A stretch of 17,791 nucleotides of DNA from a virus (taxonomy: Duplodnaviria > Heunggongvirae > Uroviricota > Caudoviricetes), in IMG/VR virus record IMGVR_UViG_2698536647_000006, one strand, 5' to 3'. The translations under genes were made by a program, and so were the position numbers. The notes beneath the pieces were generated by a model. That model was not told the origin of the DNA and did not search any database. It was given only the letters and a program-made list of their open reading frames with translations. Positions within the stretch are counted from its first letter, which is position 1, and every line of letters begins with the position of its first letter. Shown one piece after another: positions 579-16,423 of this stretch.

Positions 579-606
579 TTCTGCCTCTCAGATTATATAG
601 ATAAGC

Positions 607-735: not shown

Positions 736-788
736 AACACAGCGATAGATTTGTGATTGGTCCGTTATTTTCTGGCTGATATTTGAGC

Positions 789-820: not shown

Positions 821-837
821 GGATATTACTCACTGAT

Positions 838-1278
838 ATGGTCTTTGCAATGAGCAAATCTAATCTGATCGCGTTCCGCATCCCATCTGAATTGCAGGAT
901 GAGTTTAATCGGTCTGTTCTCGCTTCTGGAGGGGATAAAACCTCCTGGCTTGTTGATGCGATTCGCATGAAGCTGGGACAGATGGAAAAGTCTATTGATT
1001 CACGAATGCTTGGGCTGGTGGAGCGCATGGAAAAAGCCGCAGCATCGCTTATTGCCGGAAAGCCGAACATCCCACCAAAGCCATATAACGAAACGGCAGT
1101 TATAAAGATCATTGCCGATACCATCCGACAGGGATTTGATAATGGGCGTGTGATAGCTGAACGGCTCAATGAAGCAGGCTACCAAACAAAAGCTGGTAAA
1201 GCGTGGGATAAAGACATTTACAGCGCGTGGAAGCGTCAGGGTAACAATATTAAAAGAATCAATACGCTGCTTCAGTAA
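838..1278 (+). CDS. RHH (Arc/CopG-like) DNA-binding protein, 146 aa
   Basis: The N-terminus NLIAFRIPSELQDEFNRSVLASGGDKTSWLVDAIRMKL fits a strand-helix-helix pattern. The C-terminal segment IAERLNEAGYQTKAGKAWDKDIYSAWKRQ resembles the helical DNA-binding module seen in recombinase-type proteins. Start could be the ATG at 850 (MSKSNL...). Confidence 0.55.
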   Translation: MVFAMSKSNLIAFRIPSELQDEFNRSVLASGGDKTSWLVDAIRMKLGQMEKSIDSRMLGLVERMEKAAASLIAGKPNIPPKPYNETAVIKIIADTIRQGFDNGRVIAERLNEAGYQTKAGKAWDKDIYSAWKRQGNNIKRINTLLQ

Positions 1279-1307
1279 TTGATCAGTGTATAAATGATAT
1301 TTATCGC

Positions 1308-2330
1308 TCAATCGCTCCCTTTCCGCCCTTCAGCTACAGGGTCGTTGTCGGCGATAACAAAACCTAAGTCCTGAGAGAATCTCTCTCGTGGGAATCCTTT
1401 AGCAGGTAAACCCATTGAATCATATCCACATCCGGGAACATTTGGTTTAGAGTCAATAAGGTCTGCAATTTGCCGAAGCCATGTTGATCCCGGACCAAGT
1501 TGTTTAACTAAGTACCAGATAATACAGATCGCGCTAAAAATCCTCTCGCAACTCTCTGGATGGAGATTAAGTCCGTCAAAGTATTCATTATCCGGTACTG
1601 GAACTCGGGGATGCTTTCTATTCCATATTCTGGAATGGTGAGCGCAACGATTCCTTATGAGATTAAGGCACTTCAACCATTTTGCAAATGTCTGCTTATT
1701 ATCAATGCCAAAACGACGTATAATTTTCCCCTGCATATGACCATTAAGCATCGCATAATATTTAGACATCTGACCAAAATCCCAGGTCTCCACCGCCACC
1801 CAAAATGGAATCTCCTTGCCTTGGCTTCGATGCCATTCAATACAGTCATCTCTGCTTTCGTCTAATTTTACTTTTTGCTTATACACCCAATGCTCGAAGG
1901 CAGATGAGAATTTTGGATTAATGTATTTTGATGACATGTAGGCAAGTGGATCATTGCGACCAACCTCATGCGCGATGACTGAACGAACATGAATCTCTAT
2001 TCTTTCGATAGCATCAATCATCAAAAGACGCAGTTTTTTGTCAAAAAGATATAGATCGTACGTCTTCTCGAAACTGGTACCAGCAAGAAATCGGTCTGTT
2101 CTGTACGAAAGACCTTTATCTGTTGTCGCAATAATTCTTGATGGGTACCAAAAACCTGACAATCGATAATATCCAACCTGCGACAGCTTACGTATCGCAC
2201 GATTTCGATCATTGATAATCATGCCACGTTCAAGTAGCAATCCTAGCAATTCGTGATAGTCCTTATGAGGCTTTGCGGCAATCATAGTGGCGAAACAAAA
2301 GATAATAAAAGGCCCGACCGTGAAACTCAC
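1308..2330 (-). CDS. Abi_2 family abortive-infection protein (AbiD/AbiF-like)
   Basis: Length ~325-340 aa. N-terminal KPHKDYHELLGLLLERGMIINDRNRAIRKLSQVGYYRLSGFWYP and C-terminal LNLIRNRCAHHSRIWN match motifs I associate with lactococcal AbiD/AbiF-type proteins. The true start is probably the internal ATG at 2285 (MIAAKPHK...). Confidence 0.7.
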   Translation of the reverse strand: MSFTVGPFIIFCFATMIAAKPHKDYHELLGLLLERGMIINDRNRAIRKLSQVGYYRLSGFWYPSRIIATTDKGLSYRTDRFLAGTSFEKTYDLYLFDKKLRLLMIDAIERIEIHVRSVIAHEVGRNDPLAYMSSKYINPKFSSAFEHWVYKQKVKLDESRDDCIEWHRSQGKEIPFWVAVETWDFGQMSKYYAMLNGHMQGKIIRRFGIDNKQTFAKWLKCLNLIRNRCAHHSRIWNRKHPRVPVPDNEYFDGLNLHPESCERIFSAICIIWYLVKQLGPGSTWLRQIADLIDSKPNVPGCGYDSMGLPAKGFPRERFSQDLGFVIADNDPVAEGRKGSD

Positions 2331-2455
2331 ATGCCTGAAATCGGCGGCGGAGAAACAGAGGATCGGGCTCGGTTGCCTGTAACTCTATCCGAAGTTATCC
2401 ACATGTCAATGCACAGTTACTTAGGAAACTAACATAGATACTATCATCACTCACG

Positions 2456-2478
2456 AAAAACCACTATATGTGGTTTTT
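2456..2478. terminator. Perfect inverted repeat AAAAACCAC-TATAT-GTGGTTTTT; possible bidirectional terminator or insulator
   Basis: 9-bp arms read directly, flanked by A/T runs on both sides; lies upstream of the Abi gene start. The stem is AT-rich, so terminator strength is uncertain. Confidence 0.35.
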
Positions 2479-3157
2479 ATTCATATCGTTATCCACTACA
2501 GGCTGTGTCAATAATTTTTACCTATTAATTGGGTAATTTCTACATTTTCCTATGCTGGCTAGTTTCTCTACTGAAAAGTTGGCACTCCTTAATCGCTTTT
2601 CGGTTAATACTATCGGTCTTCATATTGCCAGCAGCATACGCCATCCGATAATTTCGATGCTACGCGCGCGTACTTGTCGCAAAATATCAGGCAAAGGCCA
2701 GATTCAGAACGTCGTGATAACCACCAGCACAACATGAGATGTCATGTAACGCGATTTATCACACCAGATACATGTGATTGGTGTACCCGCATAAAACATT
2801 GTCATAGCGCGTCCTGTGCGCATATACGCCGATAATCAACACATCACCACCACTCTGACTTATGTAGAGAACAGTTTCATGGTATCCCCCGCCATCGTGT
2901 GCGTACTGGTCGGACGCAGTTGCAAAAAATTTTGCAACTGATACCCCTCGCGCGCGTACTTGTCTCGAAATTGGTGTTTTGCTGTGGCAGTGATATCAGA
3001 AAAATCTTCCTGTTTCACATAAAGCGGATATGCGCGTACTGTAACGACCCCATCAACTGGGAGCGGATTTGAAATCCCGACCCAAGCTATGTACCAAATG
3101 CCATGTCTTGGATATATGATGATTGCCATTCTAAACAAAGCTAAAGGGAGGGTTGGT

Positions 3158-3508
3158 GTGAATGCTCAGGCTGTCATCATGGTTTTACTTGGTCTGATTG
3201 TCGCAAAACTATATCCAGACTGGTGGAAAGGGGTATTAGCAACTGTCGCCATCTATTTGCTTTTATCCGTCGTTAAGCGATCGTTCGTTAAGACCGTAAA
3301 TCAAGCAAAACGTTTCTCATTTAAGAATTTAATAAACTATATTACTGGGCTTATTTTTTGCCTTTCAATTTTGATCGCTTCAGCTTTTTTGCCCGTATCA
3401 ATAGCTAATTTTTTTGGCGCACCATATGAGGTAGGTTATCTATTCTCTGTTTTTTGTCTTGTTCTTTCCCTTCTTTACCTATGGATGAGAGCAAAGAACA
3501 AAAATTAG
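3158..3508 (+). CDS. Small integral membrane protein (~116 aa, four predicted TM helices); candidate immunity/partner protein
   Basis: Four hydrophobic stretches of ~15-23 residues. Strong RBS AAGGGAGG (3144-3151) sits 6 nt before the GTG at 3158; the ORF-track start at 3089 has no RBS. Convergent with the 701-aa gene. Confidence 0.5.
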   Translation: MNAQAVIMVLLGLIVAKLYPDWWKGVLATVAIYLLLSVVKRSFVKTVNQAKRFSFKNLINYITGLIFCLSILIASAFLPVSIANFFGAPYEVGYLFSVFCLVLSLLYLWMRAKNKN

Positions 3509-3522
3509 CCATCCATGGCTAA
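3500..3522 (-). terminator. Hairpin TTAGCCAT-CC-ATGGCTAA in the 18-nt gap between convergent stop codons, followed by TTTTT on the minus strand
   Basis: Read directly between stop 3506-3508 (+) and stop 3527-3529 (-). On the minus strand the stem is followed immediately by a T5 run, fitting an intrinsic terminator for the cargo operon. Confidence 0.45.
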
Positions 3523-3526
3523 CCAG

Positions 3527-5632
3527 TTATTGAGATTCTTTTTGTGATGCCTGTGCGACTCTGGTGAGCGATTGTGTGACCGTACTGATCGCTCTGTCAT
3601 ATGCTGTGCTACCTTTTGGCGTATTTGCCAGACGTAACAAGGCATTTCGTATAACAGGGCTTTCGTATGCCTTCGCTGCTCCGCCTACGACACCAGCAGC
3701 AGGAACAACAAACGCAGCCGTTTTTAGCATCCCCGCTAATACTGCTGCGTTTATGATGCCACCACCAACTAACAATCCATAAAGCTGCTGACCATTTAAG
3801 TTTTGAACGTTCGCTTTTGCCGCGTGTCTTGTATCATTGAGGTATTTAATAACGCCGTCCAGTTCCTTTCCATATACGCCTTTAAAGAAAGTTGCTGATT
3901 GCTTCCTGTTCCGGTGTAACGCATTAATAAACTTCTCAACACTGATATTTCCAGACGGATCAGTCGCCTTATCTACAGCATTCTGAACTATGGCGGCTCG
4001 TGCGTTTTGCCTACCATTGTCATCCAGAAGCCTGTAAAGCTGAGAACGTTCTGATGGGTTTTGGCTAAAAACGAGTTTTGTTACATCCTCAGGCGTGGCC
4101 TTGCCGCTGGCTATTGCCTTTTGAACGCGCGTTCTTCCCATCATGTCATTGAATCTAGCCCATGAGCGATCAACCCTAGACATATTGGTAGCTTCTTCTG
4201 AGCCTAGTTTTTGGGATACTGCTTTTTTCATATCCGCTGTATATGCCTTGTAGACAATATCGCTGGCTTTCTGGAGCGTGTCTTTATCAACAGTCTCGTT
4301 TGAATTCATGAACCGCTTTCGAAGGTCAGTTCTGTTTTCTCTCGCCAGACGCAGGTCATTGGGTCCGCTGGTGATATCGTCTTTAAATTGCTGCAAGACT
4401 TTTACCGCGGCTCTATCCTGAGATTTGCCCGGTCGGCTTAACACGGCAATCTGATTGTCGATAGCTTTTACCGTGTTTGAGAGATCGACAGGGGTATCCC
4501 CCATAGCGTCAATTATGCGGTTATATCGCTTTCCTGCTGCCTCAATGAATTTTTGCTGCCCTTTAGTCGCAGACTCATAAAGCTGTTTATCTGAAATTCC
4601 CCCCAGACCATCGCTAAATGTTCTGACTAAATTTTCTCGTGCTTGTTGTTGATTCAGTCGGTTCTTACCGGTTCCAAAAAAAGGAAGTCTTTCGCCTAAT
4701 GTCTGAGCCTGACTCTGCATAAAGGTTTTATCTTTCAGCATGTCACTGGTCATTAACGGCAGATTTCTTTCCGATGCAAAGTCGACAGCAGCCTTTGCTT
4801 CAGGCGACATATCACCACGAACAGCCCTCGAAACCGCACTCGCTGTATTTTCCAGCCCCTTACCAATACCACCAATGCCAGCAGAAATTACCGTTTGTAA
4901 CGGATCAATATCTTCTCCACCAGCAAGGCTGGTGGCTCCCTGTAGTGCTAAATCTGTAGCTGCTGATTTTCCTATGGCACCAAGCACCGTTCCAGCCCTG
5001 CCCGCTGGTGTAAACGCCAACGCATTAGCAAGAAACGAAGTCAGGTCTTGCGGTGATAAACCCGGCTTGTTTAGGGCATAATCACCTGATGGCAGAGAAA
5101 CGATAGTATTCCCCTTCTCATCCTGCCTTAATGTCGCCCCCATTCCCTGAAGAATCTTTTCCTGAGACGCGTCAGAGCCGAAAAGTTGAGACCATCCAGC
5201 CTTTAAGGCATCCATGCTTAGTGAGTTCAATTCTGGGGCAGAGGCGACATTTTGCAGTCTCTCCATCTCTGGAGTCATTCGGCTTTCGCCTGTTATAGCA
5301 TCGCGCATCGCAGCCCCAAGACTGGCTCCCTGTTCTGCTGAACGCTCAAGCCCCTCTCTTTGCTGAGTAGCTAACTTTGCATACCCTGACGCAAGAGAAT
5401 TATCAGATGATGTATGTTGAATATTTTGAGTTGCTGATTGGGATCGGTCTATTTCATTCGTTGATGGCAGTGGATAGGCAGCATAAAAAGCCTGCTTAGC
5501 CTGCTCTACACTTTCTCCGGCTTGCGGGGCCACGACTTCATTGAAGTATTGCTCCTGAGCCTGCGCTTTTTGTTCTGGTGCTAACGCCTGATACTGTGGA
5601 GAAGCGATAACATCTTTCCATGCTTTAGCCAT
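3527..5632 (-). CDS. Hypothetical 701-aa low-complexity (A/G/Q/S-rich) protein with a C-terminal hydrophobic helical hairpin
   Basis: Long ORF whose ATG (5632-5630) overlaps the upstream stop as TAATG, with GGGG 6 nt upstream. No P-loop or other catalytic motif seen by eye. Hydrophobic segment LYGLLVGGGIINAAVLAGML-KT-AAFVVPAAGVVGGAA lies ~48 residues from the C-terminus. Confidence 0.8.
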   Translation of the reverse strand: MAKAWKDVIASPQYQALAPEQKAQAQEQYFNEVVAPQAGESVEQAKQAFYAAYPLPSTNEIDRSQSATQNIQHTSSDNSLASGYAKLATQQREGLERSAEQGASLGAAMRDAITGESRMTPEMERLQNVASAPELNSLSMDALKAGWSQLFGSDASQEKILQGMGATLRQDEKGNTIVSLPSGDYALNKPGLSPQDLTSFLANALAFTPAGRAGTVLGAIGKSAATDLALQGATSLAGGEDIDPLQTVISAGIGGIGKGLENTASAVSRAVRGDMSPEAKAAVDFASERNLPLMTSDMLKDKTFMQSQAQTLGERLPFFGTGKNRLNQQQARENLVRTFSDGLGGISDKQLYESATKGQQKFIEAAGKRYNRIIDAMGDTPVDLSNTVKAIDNQIAVLSRPGKSQDRAAVKVLQQFKDDITSGPNDLRLARENRTDLRKRFMNSNETVDKDTLQKASDIVYKAYTADMKKAVSQKLGSEEATNMSRVDRSWARFNDMMGRTRVQKAIASGKATPEDVTKLVFSQNPSERSQLYRLLDDNGRQNARAAIVQNAVDKATDPSGNISVEKFINALHRNRKQSATFFKGVYGKELDGVIKYLNDTRHAAKANVQNLNGQQLYGLLVGGGIINAAVLAGMLKTAAFVVPAAGVVGGAAKAYESPVIRNALLRLANTPKGSTAYDRAISTVTQSLTRVAQASQKESQ

Positions 5633-7080
5633 TAATCACCCCATAGTGAAGAAAAGTTACTGCTGGCTGCTGGCTGTGATACCTGTGCAGGTTGAGATTG
5701 CTGCCGCTGAGATTTACCAACATTAACGTTATATTGCTGGTTGTAATTGTCGGTATATTGCTGAATGTCGCGCATTGATTGTTGTAGTGCTTCAGGGCTT
5801 GAGAAATCAGGCTTTGGCATACCCTGAAAATACCTATTGGCCTCTGCTTCGGTGTTGATGCCAGATGCCCCCATATCTCGGGCTGCCGCAATCCCCTGAT
5901 TTTGCATTTTGCCCATGATTCGCTGTGCAGCGTTGTATAGTTTCCTCTCCTCAACACCAGATGCCCGGCTACGAATATCTGCACCAAGAGCAAAAGAACC
6001 TGAAGAACCTGTAATACCTGTCATGAAGCCAAGATCGTCAATTGATGCGCCAGAAATTGCATCAAGATCTTTCTTCATTTCGTAATTCTGCGCATTAGCT
6101 GCCGATGTAGCCGGAGCAGCAATAGAACTTGCGGGGACGCGAATCATATTGCCCTCGTTGTCTATTCCTTCGTAGAACGCATTAGCACCAGCGCCGTGAA
6201 GCTTCCTACCAACCGTTACCGTTCTACCATCTGCCAGTTGCACAACATTCTCCCCGCCAGCAGCAGGACGGCCTCGAACACGAAGATATGTCTTTTGTTG
6301 CTCTGGAGACAGGCTGTTGAAATATTGATATTCTTTAACAGATGCAGGAACAGCACCTCCAGCAGTGCGCAGAGAGTTTTCACGGCTAACAGCAATGCTT
6401 TGCGCCTGTAAACCTTCCCCAGCTTTATTGCTGCGAATCGTCTCTGCCAACTCGCCACGCTCAATATCCCGACCCTCCATTCGATCTTTGATATCGAAGT
6501 ACTTCTCATGACCGAGAGAAAACAGCGCCAGATTACCTGCGAAATGCTGGAAGCCCTGCGGGTCATTAACCTGCATTTCAGCAATAGTTTCTGGAGGGAT
6601 ACCTAAACGACGCATCTCCTGCTCATTATCCATCATGAACCTGCCAAATGCGCCCGGACCAAGCGATGAGGCTACCTGTGCTTTGAGCGCCAGATTGCCA
6701 TAATCATCCCTTTGAGCATCATCGACATAACTCATCCCTTTACGGACTTCCTCAAACTCTTCTGGGAATGCTGTAATAAGATTACGCATCTGCTCCCTGT
6801 CGCCGGACGCATAAGCATCTGCATAACCTTTCTGGAATGCCGCTTTACGCTCCTGCTGTTGCTGCTGCTTATAAATATCAGCAACTCCAGCCAGACCACG
6901 TAACGCGGTCAGACCAACGTTATTTGCACCTGAGCGAGCCAGTTCATTGTTTTCGCGGATCAGACCAAGCGTTGCGTTAATGTCGCTTGCCTTTGGCGCA
7001 TTCTCATTTTGCGTACCGATGCCAGCCAGAAAACCACCAGAATTAATACCCTGTTGCCACGTAGCCATTGATTTACCCAC
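5632..7080 (-). CDS. Hypothetical 482-aa low-complexity (Q/G/A/N-rich) protein, translationally coupled to the 701-aa gene
   Basis: Long ORF with no recognisable enzymatic motif. The track start is GTG at 7080; an alternative ATG at 7068 lies 4 nt after the stop of the 57-codon ORF. Confidence 0.8.
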
Positions 7081-7246
7081 GTCCAGTTAAAGTGTAAGCC
7101 AGCGCCTTATCCATTAATCCCCGAGCAATTTCGTGGATCGTTGGCGCAACTCCTACCTCTGATTTTTTACGCTGCTCCTCCTGAATTTTCTTTATCGCTT
7201 CCATTTGCTTCTCACTTATCAATACTGGCTTTACTGAAATAGCCAT
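7073..7246 (-). CDS. Unannotated 57-aa ORF, RHH-like; first gene of the cargo operon
   Basis: Manual translation: ATG 7246-7244, TAA 7075-7073, giving [66 protein letters not shown] lies 4-5 nt upstream. Below the ORF-track cutoff. Confidence 0.45.
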
Positions 7247-7261
7247 AACGCCCCCTTAGAA

Positions 7262-7277
7262 CTGTATAAAACAACAG
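7262..7277. promoter_or_regulatory. LexA (SOS) box CTGT-N8-ACAG
   Basis: CTGTATAAAACAACAG read directly, with an AT-rich spacer. About 14/20 positions match the E. coli consensus TACTGTATATATATACAGTA, including both half-sites. A perfect TATAAT on the minus strand (7285-7280) lies just upstream, though no good -35 was found. Confidence 0.55.
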
Positions 7278-7341
7278 TTATTATAGTTTCACAAATCGCA
7301 ATATTCATCATCGTAATTGCAAAATATGAAACAAATAGCAC

Positions 7342-7374
7342 AAAAAAATGCCACCGCTCAGTAGCTGGTGGCAT
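7342..7374 (-). terminator. Rho-independent terminator (minus strand) separating the primase/iteron region from the cargo operon
   Basis: Minus strand reads ATGCCACC-AGCTACTGAGC-GGTGGCAT followed by TTTTTT: an 8-bp GC-rich stem plus T6. Confidence 0.6.
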
Positions 7375-7568
7375 CGTTCTGTATGTCAGGTTTTGACAGG
7401 TTTTTTATGGACTCTAAAAACTATATTTATGGTGTCGCATTACTCTTCACGGCAGGCGCTTTCCAGTTCTGCCCTTGCTTCTGGCTCCATTGGTAATTTG
7501 ATTCGCGATCAGCTATGCGGATGGTTTGCTGAACAGGCATAACAACTTCTCAAAGGCTGTTTTTTGAA

Positions 7569-7644
7569 CTACGAAAATTTCGTAGTGCTCACTTTCAAAA
7601 ACGTCACGCCCTTGTACACAGGATTTTACGAAAGTCTCGTAAAA
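7569..7644. promoter_or_regulatory. Two related palindromes: CTACGAAA-A-TTTCGTAG (7569-7585) and TTTTACGA-AAGTC-TCGTAAAA (7624-7644)
   Basis: Both read directly and share inverted TACGA/TCGTA half-sites, centre-to-centre ~57 bp apart. They lie between iteron cluster B and the cargo-operon promoter; candidate operator sites. Confidence 0.35.
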
Positions 7645-7694
7645 CACTCTCTGATGCCAGCCAGGTGTTGTGCGCATCAATTCAGTCACATTGT

Positions 7695-7810
7695 GTTGGT
7701 TCAAAATACCGTGTTGTTGGTTCAGTGTTGGTTCAATAAAAAGAATAAAATCCTTATAAAACAATACTCTTTACAAATTGAACCAACTGAACCAACTGAA
7801 CCAACACCTT
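7695..7810. repeat. Iteron cluster B: three spaced GTTGGTTCA (7695-7703, 7716-7724, 7727-7735) plus three tandem TGAACCAAC (7779-7805)
   Basis: Direct reading; mirror image of cluster A. Lies immediately 3' of the primase-helicase gene, so it is a candidate ori. Confidence 0.7.
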
Positions 7811-7830
7811 TTCTACGCACATGAAGAAGC

Positions 7831-10587
7831 TCATTCTTCAGATGAGTTATAATCTCCAGGCTGGTAATTGAGTACATAAACGTTTATTTGTCGTCCCTGA
7901 ATACGTGGTGATTTTCTTTGGTATCCACGACCGCTGTTTGGTGGGGTTAGCATCCCGGCTTTTTTCAACACTTCAGCAAACTGTTTTGCGTTGAAACCAC
8001 ATGCGATCTCCTTTTCAAATGTGGCCGGGAATGTGTAGAAAATCATTGGGCTTTCGTCATGTTCTCCACGCTGACGGTATCCGGCCAAATCTTTGATGGG
8101 CAAATCTGCCGGGCTGTATGGAAATGGTGCAAAACGGCTAAGCCCATAGGCATTAAGAAATGCCTCCGTTTGTTCAATAATCTGCTGATGTTCTTTGTTA
8201 CCTGTGCCGAACTCGCGCAACCATGCGTTATAGCTGTGCTGTATCGCATCACGGCATGTCTGAGCATCCCAGCCTGTTACAACCTCGCCTAACAGCAATG
8301 CGGCCTCCAGAATGGCAAATCGCGCGGCTACACGGTGAACCTGCTCACCATAATCGGATGGGATCAGACTTCTCCATCTGCTTTCGCAGTCACGAACAGT
8401 TTTAATTGCCTGTTGCTGGTGGTCTGCCAGCCATTTAATCCACTCACGCCCGGCTGCGCCGTGGTGATGCTGGTAAGCGTCTTTCAGTGCGTCTGCGTGC
8501 TGTTTTCCGTTCTGGTAATCGTGAAAGCGTACTGCTTTACTCAACGGAATATTCAGCAGTCGCACCAGTTGCCCGGCTTTGGTTTTTCGCCCGGAAGTAG
8601 CGATAAATGTTTCTAAATCCATTTCTCCAGTGCTGATTGCCACTGTACGCCAGCGTTTTAGATCCCGGTTTCCACCATCTTTAGCGCCTTGCAGTTTCCC
8701 TACACCGTTAAATAACGCATAGGCAGACTGTGAAACACTGACAGGATCAGCGCCCTGACCAACTTCATCAAGCGGTATTAGTCCGTCATTGTGGGCGGCG
8801 GCTTCATTTGCCAGCCCCAGCGCGGTTCCGTACCACGTCAGCCGCAATAAATCAGGGTTGCCGTATAAGCTGCTCGCCACGTTTGCCGTGGTGGTCTTAC
8901 CTGCGCTCGACTGCTCATAGAAATGAATGCCGAACCCGTCAGCGCCCACCAGCCCAATCAATGGCGCTGCCAGTGCTGCGCCGATCCCGGTCATCATTGA
9001 ATAGTTACCAAAGGCCAGACGCGCCACGTTATCACGCCAGCTTTTCGCGCTCCCTGAGACGGTATATCCGGCTGCGGCTGAGCTTCTCCCGCTGAACAGC
9101 ACAGGATTTTCAGGTGTTCCGATGATTTCCCCATCAGGCATGATGTACGCTCCGCATTGCCAGCCAGTGGCATGAGCAACACGCCACAATTCACGAGAGC
9201 CACTGCGTTGTAGCCAGTCTGCCAGTATTGCTCTGAGGCTGCTTTTGGTCGTGACATTTACCCCACCAGCTTTAAGTGTGCGCCATCCTTCACGTTCACC
9301 AATATCAGCCAGTGGAATAGCAGCGGTTGTCGGCGTTTCAGAACCAAACGACAGCCAGCGAAGAATGAGATACTGGTCTTTATCGTCTCTGCCAGTACCG
9401 ATAACGCTTAACGGAGAACATAACCAGCTTTCGTTATTGATGATTTCTCCACTCTGGCTGTCAGCTCTCGGAGATACCCAATAAATACCATCCTCGCGGC
9501 TTTCTATTCTTGGTTTCAGTGGGTCGGTATCCATAACCTTAAAATCGCTTCCCTCAATGGTCTGTGGCTGCTGTTTCACGCCATTACCCTGTGGTTGGTA
9601 CATTGACTTATTGAACGCTTCTGTGGCGCATTTAATGCCGTGTTTTTGGTGGTAATCATTCCAGTCTGCTTTGTGATCTGTCGGGGGTAATGCCACCCAT
9701 CCAGAAACAGATAAAGCTGCTTTTTCTGCTGCTATTCTCCCCGTGTTTTGTCTTCCTTCGCTGTGGTCGTTATCCGCAGCAATGATGATTTGTGCTGAAG
9801 GAAATTTATCCCGCAGTACCTGGGCGACATATAACAGGTTCCCGGCATCAATCGCCGCCACTGTCAGCGATTCTGGACGAATTAAATGGGCAGATAATGC
9901 CGTTGCCAGCCCTTCTGCGATTAAGATGCTCTGTGTTGTTTCTGGTGCGTTTATGGCGTGATATGCCCCTCGCTTTGCTGAACCTGTCAGGAGTCTTTTT
10001 TCACCATGTGAGGTAATAGTCTGTGCTGCTGTGACTGCGCCGGATTTATCCACCAGCGCCAGCAACAGAGATCCATCGGGCAACACTGGGAATGTAAAAT
10101 CACCTACCCCTTTCGCAACCAGATAATCAGATTTGCCGTTTACAGCCTTTCTGCGCATGTCATCAAACTGACGGGAAAACGTATCCCGTCTTTGTTGTTC
10201 GTCCTTCTCTGCCCTTTTCAGGCGCTCCTGTTCGCGTCGCTGGCGCTCGGTTTCCAGTTGTTCCCGTTTCTGGCTGGTGGCTTCTGGTGTTTCCGTTGTC
10301 CGGTAATCAATACCCAGAACATCAGCGGCAAGCAGCGCCGCCTCTGTTGTGTCGCAGTTATTTACGCGTTTAATTAAATCCAGCCCATCACCAGCGCCGC
10401 ACTGATTACAGATGAAGCTACCGCGCCCGTTGTCATCGAACCGGAATCGATCTTTGCCCCCACATGCAGGGCAGGGAGCATGACGGCGCGGAGAGTCAGG
10501 GACATTTATGTTCAGGCAGCCCAGCACATGAGGCCAGTTGTTTTCAGACGCACTGATAACCTGACGGATAAGATCAATGTTTCGCAT
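7831..10587 (-). CDS. Primase-helicase (zinc-ribbon primase, TOPRIM, P-loop NTPase), 918 aa
   Basis: Cys-rich N-terminus CPACGG...CNQCG; TOPRIM-like IAEGLATA...AADNDH; Walker A SSAGKTT and Walker B-like IPLDEVGQ. GGGGG RBS 5 nt upstream of the ATG at 10587. Architecture resembles satellite-phage replicases such as P4 alpha. Confidence 0.85.
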   Translation of the reverse strand: MRNIDLIRQVISASENNWPHVLGCLNINVPDSPRRHAPCPACGGKDRFRFDDNGRGSFICNQCGAGDGLDLIKRVNNCDTTEAALLAADVLGIDYRTTETPEATSQKREQLETERQRREQERLKRAEKDEQQRRDTFSRQFDDMRRKAVNGKSDYLVAKGVGDFTFPVLPDGSLLLALVDKSGAVTAAQTITSHGEKRLLTGSAKRGAYHAINAPETTQSILIAEGLATALSAHLIRPESLTVAAIDAGNLLYVAQVLRDKFPSAQIIIAADNDHSEGRQNTGRIAAEKAALSVSGWVALPPTDHKADWNDYHQKHGIKCATEAFNKSMYQPQGNGVKQQPQTIEGSDFKVMDTDPLKPRIESREDGIYWVSPRADSQSGEIINNESWLCSPLSVIGTGRDDKDQYLILRWLSFGSETPTTAAIPLADIGEREGWRTLKAGGVNVTTKSSLRAILADWLQRSGSRELWRVAHATGWQCGAYIMPDGEIIGTPENPVLFSGRSSAAAGYTVSGSAKSWRDNVARLAFGNYSMMTGIGAALAAPLIGLVGADGFGIHFYEQSSAGKTTTANVASSLYGNPDLLRLTWYGTALGLANEAAAHNDGLIPLDEVGQGADPVSVSQSAYALFNGVGKLQGAKDGGNRDLKRWRTVAISTGEMDLETFIATSGRKTKAGQLVRLLNIPLSKAVRFHDYQNGKQHADALKDAYQHHHGAAGREWIKWLADHQQQAIKTVRDCESRWRSLIPSDYGEQVHRVAARFAILEAALLLGEVVTGWDAQTCRDAIQHSYNAWLREFGTGNKEHQQIIEQTEAFLNAYGLSRFAPFPYSPADLPIKDLAGYRQRGEHDESPMIFYTFPATFEKEIACGFNAKQFAEVLKKAGMLTPPNSGRGYQRKSPRIQGRQINVYVLNYQPGDYNSSEE

Positions 10588-10599
10588 TCTGGCCCCCGT

Positions 10600-11202
10600 T
10601 TAGTGCGTCACTGGTGCTTCTGGGATGCCGTTTTCGTTTAGTTCGGCAATAAAGCTGTTGTGAAGATCGGCAAGCACTTCTCGCCCAAACGAAGTGAGTG
10701 TTCCCTGTTCGACATCGAACATGTTGCTGTAAAAAATGATGGCATTATTTGTTCCGACATCAACACCATATTTCTCGATCATTGCGCCCTCAATGTTGTT
10801 TGCCATAGCGAGGCGCTCTGCTACTGGATACAGCGGCATGGCGACGATGCCATTGGAATAAACAGAAACCACGGAATGATTGCCACTGTCATCAATAATG
10901 CTGACGGTGCCGTTTTCCTTTCTCATTTCATTGATGAATGCTGTTGCTATCAGCCAGCGCCACATAATCACGTGATGCTGTGATGTGTAATCGAAATATC
11001 CCTGGTTGCCGCCACTGGCAATAGCGAGATGTATAAACATGCCTTCATCTGGTTTATCGTCATAATCCCCGGCATCCAGACGATTTACGGCATCAATATA
11101 TGAGACGGTATCAACGCGTTCTGTCATGCCATCGTTGCTGCGGTACATGATGTTTACGCCGTCAGGCGTTGCTTCTGCATGGAAAGTTAAGAAATTATTC
11201 AT
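10600..11202 (-). CDS. Hypothetical protein (~200 aa)
   Basis: ORF-track frame 10600-11307. The likely start is the ATG at 11202 (MNNFLTF...), which overlaps the upstream stop as ATGAATAA. No family recognised. Confidence 0.55.
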   Translation of the reverse strand: MNNFLTFHAEATPDGVNIMYRSNDGMTERVDTVSYIDAVNRLDAGDYDDKPDEGMFIHLAIASGGNQGYFDYTSQHHVIMWRWLIATAFINEMRKENGTVSIIDDSGNHSVVSVYSNGIVAMPLYPVAERLAMANNIEGAMIEKYGVDVGTNNAIIFYSNMFDVEQGTLTSFGREVLADLHNSFIAELNENGIPEAPVTH

Positions 11203-11416
11203 GTTTCGCCTCGCCTGAATGATTCTGTAACTCATATTTGCCCAACAATTCGTCCGCTTCCTGAATAGCTTCTGGTACGCCATTGAGCAGTGACATAACC
11301 GCGCCAATCATTAACTTGTCTCTGTTGCTGGGGCTGGCCCCTTCAAGCCAGAACCCTAAAACAGTCTGAACCTGTTCGATGCGACATTGCGCTTCAATGA
11401 GCTGGATGTTGGTCAT
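11195..11416 (-). CDS. Hypothetical small protein (73 aa)
   Basis: ORF in the co-directional, overlap-coupled gene chain; no family recognised. Confidence 0.5.
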   Translation of the reverse strand: MTNIQLIEAQCRIEQVQTVLGFWLEGASPSNRDKLMIGAVMSLLNGVPEAIQEADELLGKYELQNHSGEAKHE

Positions 11417-11676
11417 TTCGCACTCTCCACATCGATTAAACCGATATCTATCAGGGAGGTAACTTTTTGTAGCCAGCTATTGATTACTGTCGCCTGTTCC
11501 CCTCCCACCGAGGGAACAATCTCATTCATCACATGAACCAGACCTGTGCGCGCTCTGGTAAGCCGTTCAGTCGCGCAATCTGCGGGAGTGAATGTGTCTG
11601 GATATGGCTCTTCGCGCCCCAGCAATGATTCAATTTCCAGCTCACACGGATGACGATAAATTAAGTTGATATTCAT
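11413..11676 (-). CDS. Hypothetical small protein (87 aa)
   Basis: ORF in the co-directional chain with a 4-nt overlap to the neighbouring gene; no family recognised. Confidence 0.5.
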   Translation of the reverse strand: MNINLIYRHPCELEIESLLGREEPYPDTFTPADCATERLTRARTGLVHVMNEIVPSVGGEQATVINSWLQKVTSLIDIGLIDVESAK

Positions 11677-11867
11677 TTTTCACCCCCAAGAATTACCAGC
11701 TCGGCACGGGCATCGTTAACCAAAGATGAGCGCGCTTTAATCGCATCCACGACATCAGCAGCGTCCATTTCTTCAGCCGAAAGACTGACAGCAACCGGGA
11801 CAGCCGCTGCTTGCTCGATTAATTGAAGTGCGGACGTAAGGCGAGGGGTATTAATTGAGTTATTCAT
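11673..11867 (-). CDS. Hypothetical small protein (64 aa; track ORF extends to 11924)
   Basis: The ATG at 11867 is preceded by GGGGG and overlaps the upstream stop as ATGAATAA; the longer track start has no RBS. Confidence 0.5.
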   Translation of the reverse strand: MNNSINTPRLTSALQLIEQAAAVPVAVSLSAEEMDAADVVDAIKARSSLVNDARAELVILGGEK

Positions 11868-12078
11868 TGGTTGCCCCCGTTTTGCATGGCATTTGTCCAC
11901 CTTCCAGCAGGAAATGAACGTCACGAACGGCGAGGTCCAATATCGCGAGTAACGCCTTCAGTTTTTCGTCTCGTGAGGGAGAGTTGCTCACCAGAATGTC
12001 GTTAATCACTTCTGTCAGTGTGATGATCTGGCTTGTGCGTTCGAGGGGATCCATATGCACATCGTAGGTTTTAATCAT
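11860..12078 (-). CDS. Hypothetical small protein (72 aa), nested in-frame at the 3' end of the 355-codon ORF
   Basis: ATG at 12078 with GGAGG 6 nt upstream, overlapping the stop of the 12071-12265 ORF as ATGATTAA. Product [30 protein letters not shown]... looks protein-like. Confidence 0.45.
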   Translation of the reverse strand: MIKTYDVHMDPLERTSQIITLTEVINDILVSNSPSRDEKLKALLAILDLAVRDVHFLLEGGQMPCKTGATNE

Positions 12079-12927
12079 GTGCCACCTCCATGCGGATACG
12101 ACCAGCAAAAAAGCAGATGTGATCGCGCACCAGAGAACGGCGAGCATCGCGTTCAGACTCGGCAGCAATATGATGAATTTTGGCGGTAATTGTCGGGCAA
12201 TCGCGGCGAACTGCGGCGATAATCCAGATAAATTGCGTTTTTTGGGTAGGGGTAGTAGCCAGCATGTGGCAGCCTCCTTCAGATAGCAGGTTACGCTACC
12301 ACCGGAAACGCCAATTTCGCTGGTGGTAGCCCAGACAGGGTTGGCGTAACCGGCTCTGAAGGATACCGGCGCTTCCGAAGAAGCCCCCGCCTGAGCCACC
12401 ATTGATTGACAAAGGCGCTGGATTATACACCAACGCCCAAAAAATGGGTGAGTCAGACCTACGACATAAAAAAAGACGCTCGGCGCGTCATATGTCGCCT
12501 TCAGAATTTTCAGGACGCCAATCCCGGCACCCGTTTTATGAGGTGCCTTATAACCATAAACCGTGTTGCCGCATAACGGCAAGCTCTTTTTTATGGACTC
12601 CGAAAACTCACTATTGGAAGAACCAGAAGCACAGTACATCGCGCTCATTTCGTTAACGTCACGCGCGTGGACGAAGGTTTTTGTGGAGTCACTACACGAG
12701 CAGAGAAAGCCATCTACGACCAGAAATTCTCTGGCATAGCCGCTGACCTTCTCAACGCTAACACCATCGACCGTAATTTCTGACATAGTTAAGGCATCCG
12801 CTCCTACCACCAGAAAATGATAAACTTTGCTTGTATCTGCTGTATTAATGTCTGACTTTGCTGTCATATTGCTGGATTTTGGCGACATACCAGCCAGTGA
12901 AAATATCTTCTTCTGGGCGGTTAGCAT
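11860..12927 (-). CDS. 355-codon ORF, probably composite; the 5' ~220 codons may be a real gene
   Basis: ATG at 12927 with GGAGG 7 nt upstream, and no in-frame stop until 11860. The middle segment overlaps a strongly RBS-fronted ORF in another frame and reads as low-quality protein; hairpins lie inside it. Confidence 0.3.
12071..12265 (-). CDS. Hypothetical small protein (64 aa)
   Basis: ATG at 12265 with a perfect AAGGAGG 7 nt upstream. It overlaps the long 355-codon ORF in a different frame. Confidence 0.4.
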   Translation of the reverse strand: MLATTPTQKTQFIWIIAAVRRDCPTITAKIHHIAAESERDARRSLVRDHICFFAGRIRMEVAHD

Positions 12928-13103
12928 TTGTTAACCTCCGCGAACTCCTTCATGAAACGTGCCAGCGGTTGTACGCATGGCGATTGATACCCGTCGCGAT
13001 AAAACGTCACTCGGTTGTGAGACACGCTTTCGACAGTAACGAGTGCTCCGTGGGCATCTTTGTAGCGTTTTTGAGGTTGTGGTGTTCCTGTCGGCTTAAA
13101 CAT
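12921..13103 (-). CDS. Small conserved island protein (~60 aa; possibly DUF4222-like)
   Basis: ATG at 13103 (MFKPTGTPQPQKRYKDAHGALVTVESVSHNRVTFYRDGYQSPCVQP...) overlaps the upstream stop as ATGTTTAA. Resembles small prophage proteins I recall; family unverified. Track ORF extends to 13190. Confidence 0.45.
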   Translation of the reverse strand: MFKPTGTPQPQKRYKDAHGALVTVESVSHNRVTFYRDGYQSPCVQPLARFMKEFAEVNKC

Positions 13104-13929
13104 GGACCGCCTCCAGACGCTTGGCGAGCCAGCGTTGCGACAGGCGGGTGAGTTCTCCTTTGCGCTGCTCATATTCCATGCCCATATCAATTAACGTGAT
13201 ATTGGTGCTTTCGAGATATGAGAGGTGCTCAAGCTGTTCTGCGTTCATATGGTCGCGAGGTTCGCCAGAATAGCCATTTATCCGCGCCCACTGCTTAGCA
13301 GTTAGCCCACCAAGAACGATACGAGAAATCATATTGCTCTCGTTTGTGTAGTGGTGTTGCTGCGTCGTTTTCCCCTGCTCGGCACGGGCCATATTCAGCG
13401 CATCGCACATTGGCTTAAAGTTGTTTGCGGCACTAATACGGGCTTTTAGCTGGCGACGATAGCGGGCGGCGATTTCAGGCACGCTACGCTGTAATTCTTC
13501 CTCGCACTGGATGAAATAACGACGGATAGCGCGACCCTGATCATTGCGTTCGATCATTGCCAGTTCTTTCGCCATTCCGACACTTAACAGATAGTCTTTG
13601 CCGGGTCTGCCAGACTGCTTAATCTTGCTGTAAGCCGCGCCATTCGGGCTTTTCCCCAAATTTGGGGAAATTGTTTTATGGACTGAGTAATCGTGCCCAA
13701 TGGTGAAGTCATATTCAGAGATGCGATCAGTGATCCATGTAGAGAAGTCTTTTCCCACGCCCAACGCTTTGTGTAACGCTTTTGCGCTAACAATATTGGT
13801 TTCACGCCCACCGATATGACCAGGAATAACCGGGACAATTGCGGCAAATTCATTACCGTTAATTGTGCCCAGAGAGGCGTTCAGATGAGGGGCAGCCTCA
13901 GAAATTAATCTGCTTTTTTCGATGTTCAT
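13096..13929 (-). CDS. Phage antirepressor-like protein (AntA/KilA-C type), 277 aa
   Basis: N-terminal VSAKALHKALGVGKDFSTWITDRISEYDFTIGHDY matches the AntA-type motif as I recall it; the C-terminal half is helical. Family call from memory. Confidence 0.6.
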   Translation of the reverse strand: MNIEKSRLISEAAPHLNASLGTINGNEFAAIVPVIPGHIGGRETNIVSAKALHKALGVGKDFSTWITDRISEYDFTIGHDYSVHKTISPNLGKSPNGAAYSKIKQSGRPGKDYLLSVGMAKELAMIERNDQGRAIRRYFIQCEEELQRSVPEIAARYRRQLKARISAANNFKPMCDALNMARAEQGKTTQQHHYTNESNMISRIVLGGLTAKQWARINGYSGEPRDHMNAEQLEHLSYLESTNITLIDMGMEYEQRKGELTRLSQRWLAKRLEAVHV

Positions 13930-13941
13930 TTTCAGTCTCCG

Positions 13942-14373
13942 TTAGGCGGCGTTAAACGCGTCCGGGTAGAGTTTCAGAATGTCGGCAATTTCCTGCTGAG
14001 AAAGTCCGTTGTGATCATTTATGTTCGCAAGATGGTTAATATGAGTGATCACTTTCAGAACATCACCACGGCAGGAGAAACGGTAGCGAAGGTGTGTTCC
14101 GATACCATCAGGATTCTTTTCGTCGATACGCTCCAGAGTGATTCCAAGCTGGCGTTCTAACTCTGTTGCATAGTTACGACCAGAAGACAGACGGCAGTAG
14201 CGAAGAATGTCATTTTCTGTCCATCCCTCTATACCAGTACGCAGCATATAGACTCTGGCACGATGCTTTTTCGGTGTGCGCTTTGGTGCTTGAAGGGATT
14301 TTGTAAGGGGCGTAACATCAGATACACGAATATCTGAATTAGCCGCCTGTAATGGGCGGTTTTTCTTTTCCAT
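13942..14373 (-). CDS. Hypothetical protein (143 aa)
   Basis: ORF immediately downstream of alpA with a 1-nt TGATG stop/start overlap; no family recognised. Confidence 0.55.
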   Translation of the reverse strand: MEKKNRPLQAANSDIRVSDVTPLTKSLQAPKRTPKKHRARVYMLRTGIEGWTENDILRYCRLSSGRNYATELERQLGITLERIDEKNPDGIGTHLRYRFSCRGDVLKVITHINHLANINDHNGLSQQEIADILKLYPDAFNAA

Positions 14374-14576
14374 CAGGCCATCTCGTCTCTAGATTCTAAT
14401 ATACACTTCTCAATCCATTCATCTATTTCAGACTCAACAAAAGCAATTGCCCGACTTCCAATTTTTACCTGTTTAGGGAACCTCCCCTGACTAATAAGAC
14501 GATAAATCCATGCTTTGCTATAACCAGTTCGCCTTTGAACTTCAGAGAGACGAATTAATGAATTGTAATTAGCCAT
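14373..14576 (-). CDS. alpA: AlpA-family phage regulatory protein (small HTH activator/excisionase-like)
   Basis: 67 aa; LIRLSEVQRRTGYSKAWIYRLISQGRFPKQVKIGSRAIAFVESEIDEWI matches the AlpA/Vis-type HTH pattern. Sits next to the integrase, as usual in tRNA islands. Confidence 0.85.
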   Translation of the reverse strand: MANYNSLIRLSEVQRRTGYSKAWIYRLISQGRFPKQVKIGSRAIAFVESEIDEWIEKCILESRDEMA

Positions 14577-14967
14577 TTATTAATATCCTGTACTAATGAC
14601 GCAATAACCCCCTCCTGCAACGAATGGCGAGAGTTTTATTTGCGTCAAATGCCGAATACGCCAAAGACCACAATATGAAAAACATATTGCGGTCTTTTAT
14701 AAAAGATAGTCAGATTGTTTTGGTTTGTTTGCTCCACAAGGGTAGAGCTACCCTGCATTTCGGCAGGATCACGCTATTAGGCGTGACATCCAGTAGTTTT
14801 AAAGAACATTCCGCTTTGTCAGCGACGTAGAAGGCTCAATACACCTTCGTTTATAAAAGAGCGATTGCCCTTCTCCAGGGCTAACTGTTAAATAGCAATC
14901 CTCTGTGAGTTTTTATCAATCTACTCCCCTATACTTTAGTAAACCTCTGTATACTTGTCCAGTTGTT

Positions 14968-16182
14968 TCATGCGTGTTTTTCAAACACCATATGCACCAC
15001 ATTTCCGCCATGCTCGAGAGAATCCATATAGTCGGCATACCATTGAAGCATCTCCCGCCTTCCATCCAGATATTGCGCATGGTTGTATGTGCCACGAATT
15101 GAGTTCTTATCAACGTGAGCGAGCTGCGTTTCTATCCACGCGGTGTTATAGCCCTGCTCATGCAAAATCGTACTCATAGTGTGCCGGAACCCATGACCAG
15201 TTACACGTCCAGCGTAGCCAATGCGCTTAAACACTTGGTTTATGCTGGCCTCGCTCATTGTTTTCCTTGGATCATTGCGCCCGGGAAACATAAGAGGGTA
15301 ATTGCCTGTTATTTCTCTAATCTTCCCAATAAGCGAAAGAGCCTGCTCAGACAATGGCACAATATGAGGCCGCCGCATTTTCATACGTGAAGCGGGTATC
15401 TCCCAGATAGCCTTGTTGAAATCAATTTCATCCCATAATGCGCCACGTAGTTCGCCAGTCCGCAAGCCGGTGATAATCAGTAGACGAGCCGCCATAACAA
15501 CCAATGCGCTTCCTGAGTAACTGGACAATGCCTTGAAAAAATCAGGTAATTCTTTGGCTGTAAGGAAAGGGTAATGATTAGATTCATGGCCTTGCATCGC
15601 GCTAGTAAGGTCTGGTGCAGGGTTATACTCTGCGCGACCAGTGACTATTGCATAGCGGAAAACTTCCCCGCACCGCTGCCTCACTTTTTTGGCTTTTTCT
15701 GTAGCACCGCGCCCCTCGATGCGCCGCAGCACATTCAGAAGTTCAAGTGGTTTGATTTCGGCGATTGGTTTTTTGCCAATGTAAGGGAACACATCTTTGT
15801 TGAAGGCTTCGAGGATGTCTGAAGCATAACCAGCAGACCATTTTTTTAATTTGCTGCTGTGCCACTCAAGGGCAATATCTTTGAAGGTGTTGTTTAACTG
15901 CGTTTCCCGGGCAATCTTTTCCTCTCGTTTCGCTTCCATCGGATCGATACCACCAGCGATACCTCTTTTCGCATCTTCACGTTTTGCCCGAGCATCGGCT
16001 AGAGTAACCTCAGGATACACACCTAGTGCCAATAGCTTCTCTTTACCAGCTACACGATATTTAAGTCGCCAGTATTTACCTCCATTAGGTTTTACCAAGA
16101 GATACAAACCGCCACCATCGGCCAGCTTGTAAGCCTTCTCTTTTGGCTTGGCTGTGTCTATTTGACGGGCATTGAGTTTCAC
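14968..16182 (-). CDS. int: P4-type tyrosine integrase
   Basis: 404 aa; N-terminal arm-binding pattern LADGGGLYLLVKPNGGKYWRLKYR and C-terminal catalytic region HGFRHT...LAH...Y. Starts at GTG 16182 with GGAGG upstream. Adjacent to the tRNA 3' end. Confidence 0.9.
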   Translation of the reverse strand: MKLNARQIDTAKPKEKAYKLADGGGLYLLVKPNGGKYWRLKYRVAGKEKLLALGVYPEVTLADARAKREDAKRGIAGGIDPMEAKREEKIARETQLNNTFKDIALEWHSSKLKKWSAGYASDILEAFNKDVFPYIGKKPIAEIKPLELLNVLRRIEGRGATEKAKKVRQRCGEVFRYAIVTGRAEYNPAPDLTSAMQGHESNHYPFLTAKELPDFFKALSSYSGSALVVMAARLLIITGLRTGELRGALWDEIDFNKAIWEIPASRMKMRRPHIVPLSEQALSLIGKIREITGNYPLMFPGRNDPRKTMSEASINQVFKRIGYAGRVTGHGFRHTMSTILHEQGYNTAWIETQLAHVDKNSIRGTYNHAQYLDGRREMLQWYADYMDSLEHGGNVVHMVFEKHA

Positions 16183-16254
16183 TTGGGGGTACCTCCACTA
16201 AACCGAACAGCAAATACCCCCATAAGTACCCCCATCTGACCGTAGATTTTGAGG

Positions 16255-16330
16255 GACTTTAGTAGACGTCAAAAGACGAACGGGGCTTTAATACGCGGAT
16301 TATAAGGGGTTTTGAAAGACTTTAGTAGAC
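16255..16330. repeat. 13-bp direct repeat GACTTTAGTAGAC (16255-16267 and 16318-16330) between int and the tRNA; candidate integrase arm-type sites
   Basis: Two exact copies read directly, 63 bp apart, inside the att-proximal non-coding region. Confidence 0.4.
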
Positions 16331-16347
16331 TTGGGGAGATGTTTGAA

Positions 16348-16423
16348 TGGTGCCGATAATAGGAGTCGAACCTACGACCTTCGCATTACGAATGCGCTGC
16401 TCTACCAACTGAGCTATATCGGC
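16348..16423 (-). tRNA. thrW: tRNA-Thr (anticodon CGU), intact with 3' CCA; island attachment site
   Basis: Minus strand reads GCCGATATAGCTCAGTTGGTAGAGCAGCGCATTCGTAATGCGAAGGTCGTAGGTTCGACTCCTATTATCGGCACCA, 76 nt with anticodon-loop TTCGTAA. Matches E. coli thrW as I recall it, and lies next to proA as in E. coli. Confidence 0.9.

Follow-up and report, generated by a model that had tools for sequence, protein, structure and literature searches.

The gp16-type gene and its C-terminal hairpin

The virus record IMGVR_UViG_2698536647_000006, whose entire stretch of 17,791 nucleotides is referred to below as the window, carries on its minus strand an open reading frame (ORF) for a 701-aa protein that is related to gp16, an ejection protein of phage P22. 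The ORF is preceded by a gene for a homologue of the P22 ejection protein gp20 and followed, in convergent orientation, by a gene for a small apolar protein. In this article we describe the 701-aa protein and the apolar hairpin close to its C-terminus, weigh what the hairpin may do during DNA entry, and place the gene within the phage satellite that carries it. The features around the ORF are the following:

3527..5632, minus strand: predicted gene for the 701-aa P22 gp16-family ejection (DNA transfer/injection) protein (PHROG, tblastn, PF26808, alignment)
3788..3793, minus strand: Gly614-Gln615, the family "TGQ" motif at the entry to arm 1 of the hairpin (conservation in 44 sequences)
3725..3784, minus strand: hairpin arm 1, residues 617-636, LYGLLVGGGIINAAVLAGML (Kyte-Doolittle 19-residue value 1.74; Wimley-White octanol -2.7 kcal/mol)
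3719..3724, minus strand: turn, Lys637-Thr638 (alignment mapping)
3674..3718, minus strand: hairpin arm 2, residues 639-653, AAFVVPAAGVVGGAA, Gly/Ala-rich (Wimley-White octanol +3.0 kcal/mol)
3659..3667, minus strand: Tyr656-Glu657-Ser658 motif closing the hairpin, followed by R662-N663 and the LANTP-G segment (invariant alignment columns)
3564..3782, plus strand: 72-aa ORF antisense to the Gly/Ala-rich coding region, a shadow rather than a gene
5632..7080, minus strand: predicted gene for a P22 gp20-type ejection protein, 482 aa (PF16928 Inj_translocase, E=3.3e-82; phrog_917)
3089..3508, plus strand: 139-aa ORF for a small apolar, uncharacterised protein with several hydrophobic stretches (ORF sequence; the RefSeq annotation pipeline PGAP starts it at 3119, giving 129 aa)

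As judged by homology, the 701-aa ORF encodes a P22 gp16-family ejection protein (PF26808 / PHROG 770). PHROG 770 "DNA transfer protein" (phrog_770) matches residues 19-699 with E=1.7e-163, and a tblastn search of 50,697 phage records returned matches solely among P22-like podoviruses and their relatives, with identities of 66% for N7, 33% for Sf6 over residues 1-700 and 30% for P22 gene 16 over residues 210-683 (E about 1e-38). All 1900 homologues bear a precomputed PF26808 tag, and clustering of the gp16 family at 50% gives 2101 representatives. The 701-aa protein has no match at E<=0.1 in a local copy of Pfam-A, no match to ejection proteins in NCBIfam and no sequence match in the PDB at E<=1; a Foldseek comparison of its AlphaFold model with the PDB yielded nothing below E=0.27 among the 50 matches listed, and the PDB copy contains no solved structure of any relative that is recognizable by sequence or fold. 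The assignment to the family thus comprises homology over most of the length, a position coupled to gp20 and a C-terminal succession of TGQ, apolar hairpin and YES..RN motif.

The coupling to gp20 is visible in the junction TAATG, where the gp20 stop codon overlaps the gp16 start codon. The one-base coordinate overlap is the same as between genes 20 and 16 of P22, and it is also found in Sf6 and the HS13-1 prophage, while N7 has a four-base overlap; the arrangement indicates that the gp16 gene is translationally coupled to the gp20 homologue.

The protein is homologous over most of its length to P22 gp16, as well as to Sf6 gp13 and phage L gp16, and its gene likewise takes the position after gene 20. 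P22 gp16 further shares the C-terminal layout of TGQ, apolar hairpin and YES..RN..LANTP, yet its identity to the window protein is only about 30%. Between GQ and YES, the window hairpin has 9 residues more than that of P22, and its hydrophobicity is far higher, with a Kyte-Doolittle value of the best 17-residue window (KD17) of 2.05 compared to 0.79 in P22. Moreover, the turn is Lys-Thr in the window, as opposed to Ile-Pro in P22 and Asn/Ser-Pro in most relatives, and the window gene is encoded by a satellite rather than by a phage. T7 gp16 offers a more remote parallel: it is the third and largest ejection protein of its phage, its insertion into liposomes has been reported, and it has been modelled as spanning the inner membrane (PMC8954989). 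No sequence homology between T7 gp16 and the window protein was detected, however, and T7 gp16 is twice as large and has an N-terminal transglycosylase domain, for which the window protein yields no Pfam match.

An earlier interpretation of the window from its letters alone (the sequence-only reading) had singled out an apolar hairpin at residues 617-653 (3674-3784), and indeed no other stretch of this otherwise hydrophilic protein is strongly apolar. The residues, LYGLLVGGGIINAAVLAGML-KT-AAFVVPAAGVVGGAA, map exactly to positions 3784-3674 of the minus strand and end 48 residues before the C-terminus. That distance and the split by Lys-Thr had been recognized correctly, but the arms, then described as two segments of ~17 residues, are actually 20 (arm 1) and 15 (arm 2) residues long. 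Kyte-Doolittle windows of 19 residues exceed 1.6 only in the hairpin region (maximum 1.86; whole-protein mean -0.45), a single one of the 37 hairpin residues is charged versus 22.5% in the whole protein, and Gly and Ala together make up 46% of the segment. The mean hydrophobicity of the 37 residues, 1.62, is unusual, being reached in 32 of 20000 composition shuffles; a single 19-residue window of 1.86 is unremarkable for such an Ala-rich composition (1528 of 20000). Arm 1 displays a repeated small-xxx-small spacing (GxxxG/GxxxA/AxxxG), and its Wimley-White octanol value makes it a marginal candidate for a transmembrane segment.

The hairpin is under purifying selection. Between the window and a diverged allele (locus L020), the hairpin codons show 13 synonymous differences at 33 sites and 4 non-synonymous differences at 78 sites, counted in the minus-strand frame. 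Since the synonymous excess falls in this frame, the antisense ORF 3564-3782 is a shadow, just as the sequence-only reading had held, and the related genomes examined contain no annotation for it.

The hairpin across the family and its probable role at the inner membrane

The hairpin was compared in three sets of sequences, namely close homologues (44 sequences), 78 viral loci and 126 diverse representatives. All three alignments reveal the same layout, in which (T)GQ is followed by a first arm, apolar and rich in Gly and Ala, then by the turn, a further Gly-rich arm and YES, which is invariant, and lastly by R-N and LANTP-G. An apolar stretch of about 40% Gly and Ala precedes the YES motif in all 44 close homologues and in the 126 diverse representatives, and the YES motif itself recurs in 126 of 148 diverse representatives. 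Within the set of 44, Q615 is invariant and G614 nearly so, and in arm 2 residues A640 and G650 are nearly invariant. The turn is Asn/Ser-Pro in most members, Lys-Thr in the window and often contains an Asp in distant members. In 74 of the 126 representatives the hairpin forms the most hydrophobic 17-residue window of the protein, and the KD17 of the window allele equals the family maximum. Taken at the level of alignments, the hairpin thus constitutes a conserved C-terminal apolar element and a family-wide signature of P22 gp16-type proteins.

The gp16 gene of the window is a mosaic, composed of a Sf6/HK620-like part (residues 1-56), an N7-like middle part and a distinct "KT-type" module comprising the last ~96 residues. 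Residues 1-56 are identical to Sf6 and about 75% identical to the HK620-type gp16, which is otherwise unrelated. The KT-type module starts at about residue 605 (boundary near position 3817), where the DNA similarity to N7 ends. Prophages and islands of E. coli, Citrobacter, Yersinia, Pectobacterium and Serratia harbour this module, and no isolated phage in the collection of 50,697 records does, the closest being N7 at 49%. A KT-type hairpin specific for satellites was considered and ruled out, as full P22-like prophages have it too.

A comparable element is present in proteins that occupy the gp16 position without being homologous to the window protein. Kapi1_058 of the P22-like phage Kapi1 (HK620 type; locus L091, 30414-32582) and a 906-aa protein of the satellite EcCIMP1 (soluble lytic transglycosylase (SLT) type; locus L092, 12598-15318) both contain a Gly-rich apolar stretch that ends ~90 residues before the C-terminus. 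This suggests, as far as sequence comparison can tell, a common functional requirement of the third ejection protein, which possibly was met convergently.

Genetic work on P22 connects this region with the inner membrane. SieA, an inner-membrane protein, blocks DNA injection by P22, and escape from SieA needs the gp16 changes G532W and P546S along with changes in gp20 (Leavitt et al. 2024, PMC10883804). P22 G532 aligns to window G614, the conserved Gly of TGQ located three residues ahead of arm 1, and P22 P546 aligns to window T638, a turn residue at which N7 has the turn Pro. The escape sites therefore lie at the base of arm 1 and in the turn, which links the hairpin with DNA entry at the stage of the inner membrane. 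According to the account of Perez 2009 given in PMC10883804, gp16 binds to membranes and promotes the transport of DNA into liposomes, and a review lists C-terminal putative transmembrane helices in all gp16-like homologues, including those of P22, Sf6, HK620 and CUS-3 (PMC8954989).

We consider it rather probable that the window protein is a gp16-family ejection protein whose hairpin acts at the inner membrane after ejection, where it either inserts into the bilayer or lines a channel. The protein would be soluble inside the capsid of a P22-like podovirus, exit via the tail and then act at the cytoplasmic membrane, allowing the DNA to enter the cell. At the inner membrane, several copies might insert their Gly/Ala-rich hairpins or pack them against one another by small-xxx-small helix contacts, and these hairpins would form or gate the membrane-proximal end of a gp20/gp16 DNA conduit. 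Superinfection exclusion by SieA-like proteins of the inner membrane would target this same element. The actual membrane insertion, the oligomeric packing and the function as a pore or gate are parts of this scheme that we infer.

Several observations weigh against a hairpin embedded in the membrane. The family median of KD17 is 1.34, and 15% of the members reach 1.6, such that most remain under the usual transmembrane threshold; the hairpins of P22 (0.79) and Sf6 (0.74) are barely hydrophobic. Arm 2 of the window, with 15 residues, an internal Pro and a positive octanol value, is unfavourable as a stand-alone transmembrane helix, and in the annotation by the Kapi1 authors DeepTMHMM predicts no transmembrane helix in the analogous Kapi1 protein. 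The truncations of Perez et al., as they are summarized in PMC10883804, indicate that P22 gp16 associates with membranes in vitro even without residues 476-609, and because of this the authors of PMC10883804 argue that the escape mutations probably leave membrane association unaffected; the word "hydrophobic" does not occur in their paper. The most hydrophobic windows of P22 gp16 are N-terminal (residues 79-183), and these windows in the N-terminal third might explain why membrane binding was reported in the absence of the C-terminus. The window protein, too, has a second Gly/Ala-rich and moderately apolar region at residues 191-271 (4820-5062, minus strand), with a predicted local distance difference test score (pLDDT) below 50. 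Finally, an AlphaFold model built from the 44-sequence alignment shows a helical core at residues 275-610 (pLDDT 80-90) and leaves the hairpin unplaced (pLDDT 33-40 at residues 622-652), giving no structural support either way.

Some of these observations would be accommodated equally by a hairpin that serves as a protein-protein interface instead of being lipid-embedded. Its small-residue helices would then dock on the C-terminal region of gp20 or on a neighbouring gp16, in the virion or in the conduit, and SieA as well as its escape mutations would act on the gp16-gp20 or gp16-gp16 contact. In P22 the two proteins are required as a matched pair, inasmuch as Sf6 gene 16 or gene 20 alone fails and both together work, and the SieA-escape changes affect both proteins (PMC10883804). 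Residues 350-366 of the window gp20 retain the P22-type motif with the three gp20 SieA-escape positions T354, T357 and G366, and this motif is the most apolar stretch of the protein. An interface would also suit the majority of family hairpins, which are too weakly hydrophobic for a classical transmembrane segment, and the dispensability of P22 gp16 residues 476-609 for membrane binding in vitro, as summarized in PMC10883804. On the other hand, KT-type gp16 adjoins gp20 alleles whose identity to that of the window is 40%, 55-59% or 93%, and hence no single gp20 type, which argues against a strict co-variation of gp16 and gp20. For the KT allele, moreover, exposing a segment with a KD17 of 2.05 to water would be costly. 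An interface is therefore possible yet doubtful, and a hairpin acting at the inner membrane, in contact with lipid or channel, is the explanation that we prefer.

The sequence-only reading had offered two functional settings for the hairpin, a phage membrane-channel protein and a membrane-inserting toxin. The former is essentially right in light of the homology to the gp16 family, whose members are regarded as acting at the cytoplasmic membrane in DNA delivery; the latter is not supported, since no homology to colicins was found. In the colicin version, the C-terminal region would act as a pore-forming toxin domain of the colicin kind, against which the membrane protein encoded downstream would provide immunity. 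Pore-forming colicin operons have a similar layout, with a hairpin near the C-terminus and the gene for a small membrane protein downstream. The hairpin of colicin helices 8-9 is, like that of the window, Ala/Gly-rich, uncharged and situated near the C-terminus of a soluble protein that enters the inner membrane from outside. The window combines such an uncharged, Gly/Ala-rich hairpin with a convergent gene immediately downstream, whose small apolar product is probably a membrane protein. An uncharged hairpin of ~35-40 residues near the C-terminus is the colicin-type feature, and the window has one (37 residues, one Lys), a trait that alone is not diagnostic. A convergent downstream gene for a membrane protein, in the window a probable one, is a further likeness; with colicins, and in P22 with its SieA, the protein so encoded blocks the incoming protein (for SieA, see PMC10883804).

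The colicin version nevertheless conflicts with the evidence from homology and gene context. The lack of any Pfam match of the 701-aa protein at E<=0.1 includes the colicin pore domain, the small protein matches no colicin immunity protein (its one weak match is to DUF2070), and the 50 Foldseek matches listed from the PDB, each with E >0.2 and obtained with a model of low confidence in the hairpin region, include no colicin. The protein is homologous over its whole length, hairpin region included, to virion ejection proteins, its gene lies in a gp20-gp16 cassette, and the ORFs and annotations that were inspected revealed neither a lysis gene nor an SOS-type colicin context. A buried soluble core in the predicted structure had been named as a possible refutation of membrane activity; the model leaves the hairpin unplaced instead. 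In soluble colicins the hairpin is buried in the core, and for this reason even a "buried" prediction would not exclude membrane insertion. In contrast to pore-forming colicins, the window protein would be delivered by a virion rather than secreted, and its role would be DNA passage rather than killing. We regard a colicin-like toxin with its immunity protein as extremely improbable; a new toxin reading of the hairpin is not supported, and the comparison holds only as an analogy of mechanism.

The protein family and its C-terminal putative membrane segment are already known from the literature. The new aspects are modest and consist of the family-wide layout of the hairpin, the alignment of the SieA-escape sites to it and the unusually hydrophobic KT allele. 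In the literature considered here, the passage of DNA across the inner membrane is a poorly understood step of infection by short-tailed phages, and gp16 is the least understood P22 ejection protein. The hairpin represents a concrete, mutable element for this step, of which a naturally "extreme" hydrophobic allele exists. Current views are sharpened by these results, and none is overturned.

A phage satellite with an ejection-protein cassette

The neighbours of the gp16 gene in the window are genes of a phage-inducible chromosomal island (PICI), and no structural genes lie nearby; near-identical gp16 alleles (95-97%) reside in full P22-like prophages (L005, L015, L022-L027). The order in the window is proA and thrW; integrase, AlpA-like, AntA/B, ash and primase genes; gp20 and gp16; the convergent small-protein gene; Abi_2/AbiD; and a PerC regulator. 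The features of the island are:

7831..16423, minus strand: EcCIMP1-type PICI backbone with integrase, AlpA-like helix-turn-helix (HTH) protein, AntA/B, ash, TOPRIM-DUF927 primase and thrW
16348-16423, minus strand: thrW tRNA-Thr, with the att core TCCTATTATC at 16355-16364
14968-16182, minus strand: P4-type integrase of the PICI backbone
7831-10587, minus strand: TOPRIM-DUF927 primase of the PICI backbone
1308-2330, minus strand: Abi_2/AbiD abortive-infection gene (Pfam 2.3e-52; PADLOC AbiD 5.7e-58)
838-1278, plus strand: 146-aa ORF with weak recombinase-HTH similarity
297-578, minus strand: PerC-family regulator at the accessory end of the island

With the backbone at thrW, the att core TCCTATTATC and neither structural nor lysis genes, the island belongs to the EcCIMP1 type, and the gp16 gene is here, by gene content, the cargo of such a satellite rather than of a whole phage. 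Its integrase and that of EcCIMP1 (E. coli MP1) match in every residue (100%), and the two primases have 6 differences in 918 residues. The observations on its cassette cover the whole island in the window (297-16423) and the loci L006, L007 and L092. The window contains neither a second copy of the att core nor of the thrW 3' end, and therefore the far end of the island lies outside it.

In E. coli MP1 the P22-like phage Kapi1 induces the PICI EcCIMP1 and transduces it (Pick, Stadel & Raivio 2025, PMC11773190). Helper-dependent excision and transfer have been shown for EcCIMP1 itself, which also confers an unexplained superinfection immunity, and its published description treats the "DNA transfer/packaging" genes as possible packaging proteins only (PMC11773190). 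The window island shares with EcCIMP1 the thrW site, the att core, the gene order and a "DNA transfer" module downstream of the primase. The two differ in the content of this module. In EcCIMP1, gp14, gp7 and gp20 are joined by the 906-aa protein, which is of the transglycosylase type, lacks homology to the window protein and stands at the gp16 position; a gene for a 232-aa lipoprotein comes next. The window has gp20 and the gp16-family protein only, followed by the small apolar, probably membrane, protein. Among the islands compared, the cassettes are:

Strains 83972 and 042: cassette gp14-gp7-gp20-gp16; downstream a 129-aa apolar protein
Strain MP1 (EcCIMP1): cassette gp14-gp7-gp20 plus the SLT-type 906-aa protein; downstream a 232-aa lipoprotein
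Window: cassette gp20 and gp16 only; downstream a 139-aa apolar protein

The island of strain 042 has a different integrase and insertion site. Judging from these homologies, the "packaging" genes of EcCIMP1-type islands constitute a variable P22-type ejection-protein (internal-protein) cassette.

Another explanation is that the ORF is an inactive relic, captured with its cassette from a P22-like prophage by the island and without present function, in which case the hairpin would reveal nothing about activity in this setting. Genes for capsid, portal, terminase and tail are absent from the island, the window variant lacks the gp14 and gp7 genes found in relatives, and PGAP labels the gene a pseudogene in several genomes. 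In EC6868 and 83972 the RefSeq/PGAP entry reads "injection protein, pseudogene, missing C-terminus", and the call ends exactly at the start of the KT module. The ORF is intact, however, in the window and in strains EC6868, 83972 and 042, and the pseudogene flag is therefore an annotation artefact of the mosaicism. The synonymous excess in the hairpin codons likewise speaks against a relic, as does the abundance of the two island variants, which are carried by at least 103 and at least 181 of 5426 complete E. coli genomes. EcCIMP1, with the same backbone, is an experimentally functional PICI (PMC11773190), and the pair of gp20 and gp16 corresponds exactly to the minimal exchangeable unit in P22 (PMC10883804). 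A relic is thus quite improbable, and we retain the reading of a gp16-family protein that acts at the inner membrane.

The small convergent gene and the accessory region

The gene for the small apolar protein is convergent with gene 16 and occupies the position that sieA has in P22. The same gene, 82-99% identical, follows KT-type gp16 in prophages and islands, and all of its homologues are named "hypothetical". The protein has no significant match in Pfam, NCBIfam or PADLOC (a weak match to DUF2070, E=0.041, is below the cutoff), and the 50,697 phage records contain no homologue, that is, none in a phage isolate. A SieA homologue was ruled out: BLASTP against P22 SieA gives E=0.94, the FxRYPxEAxxFNK motif of SieA (types A-C) is absent, and position and orientation alone match. 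A strict coupling between the KT hairpin and the small protein was rejected as well, given that distant homologues of the latter follow NP-type gp16 (L050, L051, L072) and that one KT-type locus (L064) is without it.

The small apolar protein and the 232-aa lipoprotein of EcCIMP1 are candidates for the superinfection immunity of the PICI. A more far-reaching idea, speculative and in our estimate unlikely, is that, in EcCIMP1-type satellites, the exchangeable gp20/gp16 cassette and the membrane protein or lipoprotein gene at the sieA position together act as one module for entry and exclusion. Particles made by the helper would be loaded with the gp16 and gp20 alleles of the satellite, and specificity would reside in the hairpin, as the part of gp16 that exclusion proteins of the inner membrane see within the bilayer, by analogy to the way in which colicin immunity proteins see the colicin hairpin. 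If true, such a module would explain the superinfection immunity conferred by EcCIMP1 and the hairpin as a hypervariable mosaic module. Re-reading the EcCIMP1-type "packaging" genes as an ejection cassette with an adjoining candidate exclusion gene is a further new, if modest, point.

Beyond the small protein, the accessory region of the island harbours the Abi_2/AbiD gene, for which a PADLOC scan reported AbiD only, the 146-aa ORF and the PerC-family regulator. This region contains a Doc-type toxin gene in strain 042 and different hypothetical genes in 83972; since the accessory genes differ between strains, it looks like a spot for variable cargo. At the opposite end, thrW of the window (16348-16423) differs from that of EC6868 (L001, 28348-28423) at two positions in the 3' half of the tRNA (T/G and A/C), near the att core, which is consistent with a tRNA 3' end supplied by different island variants.

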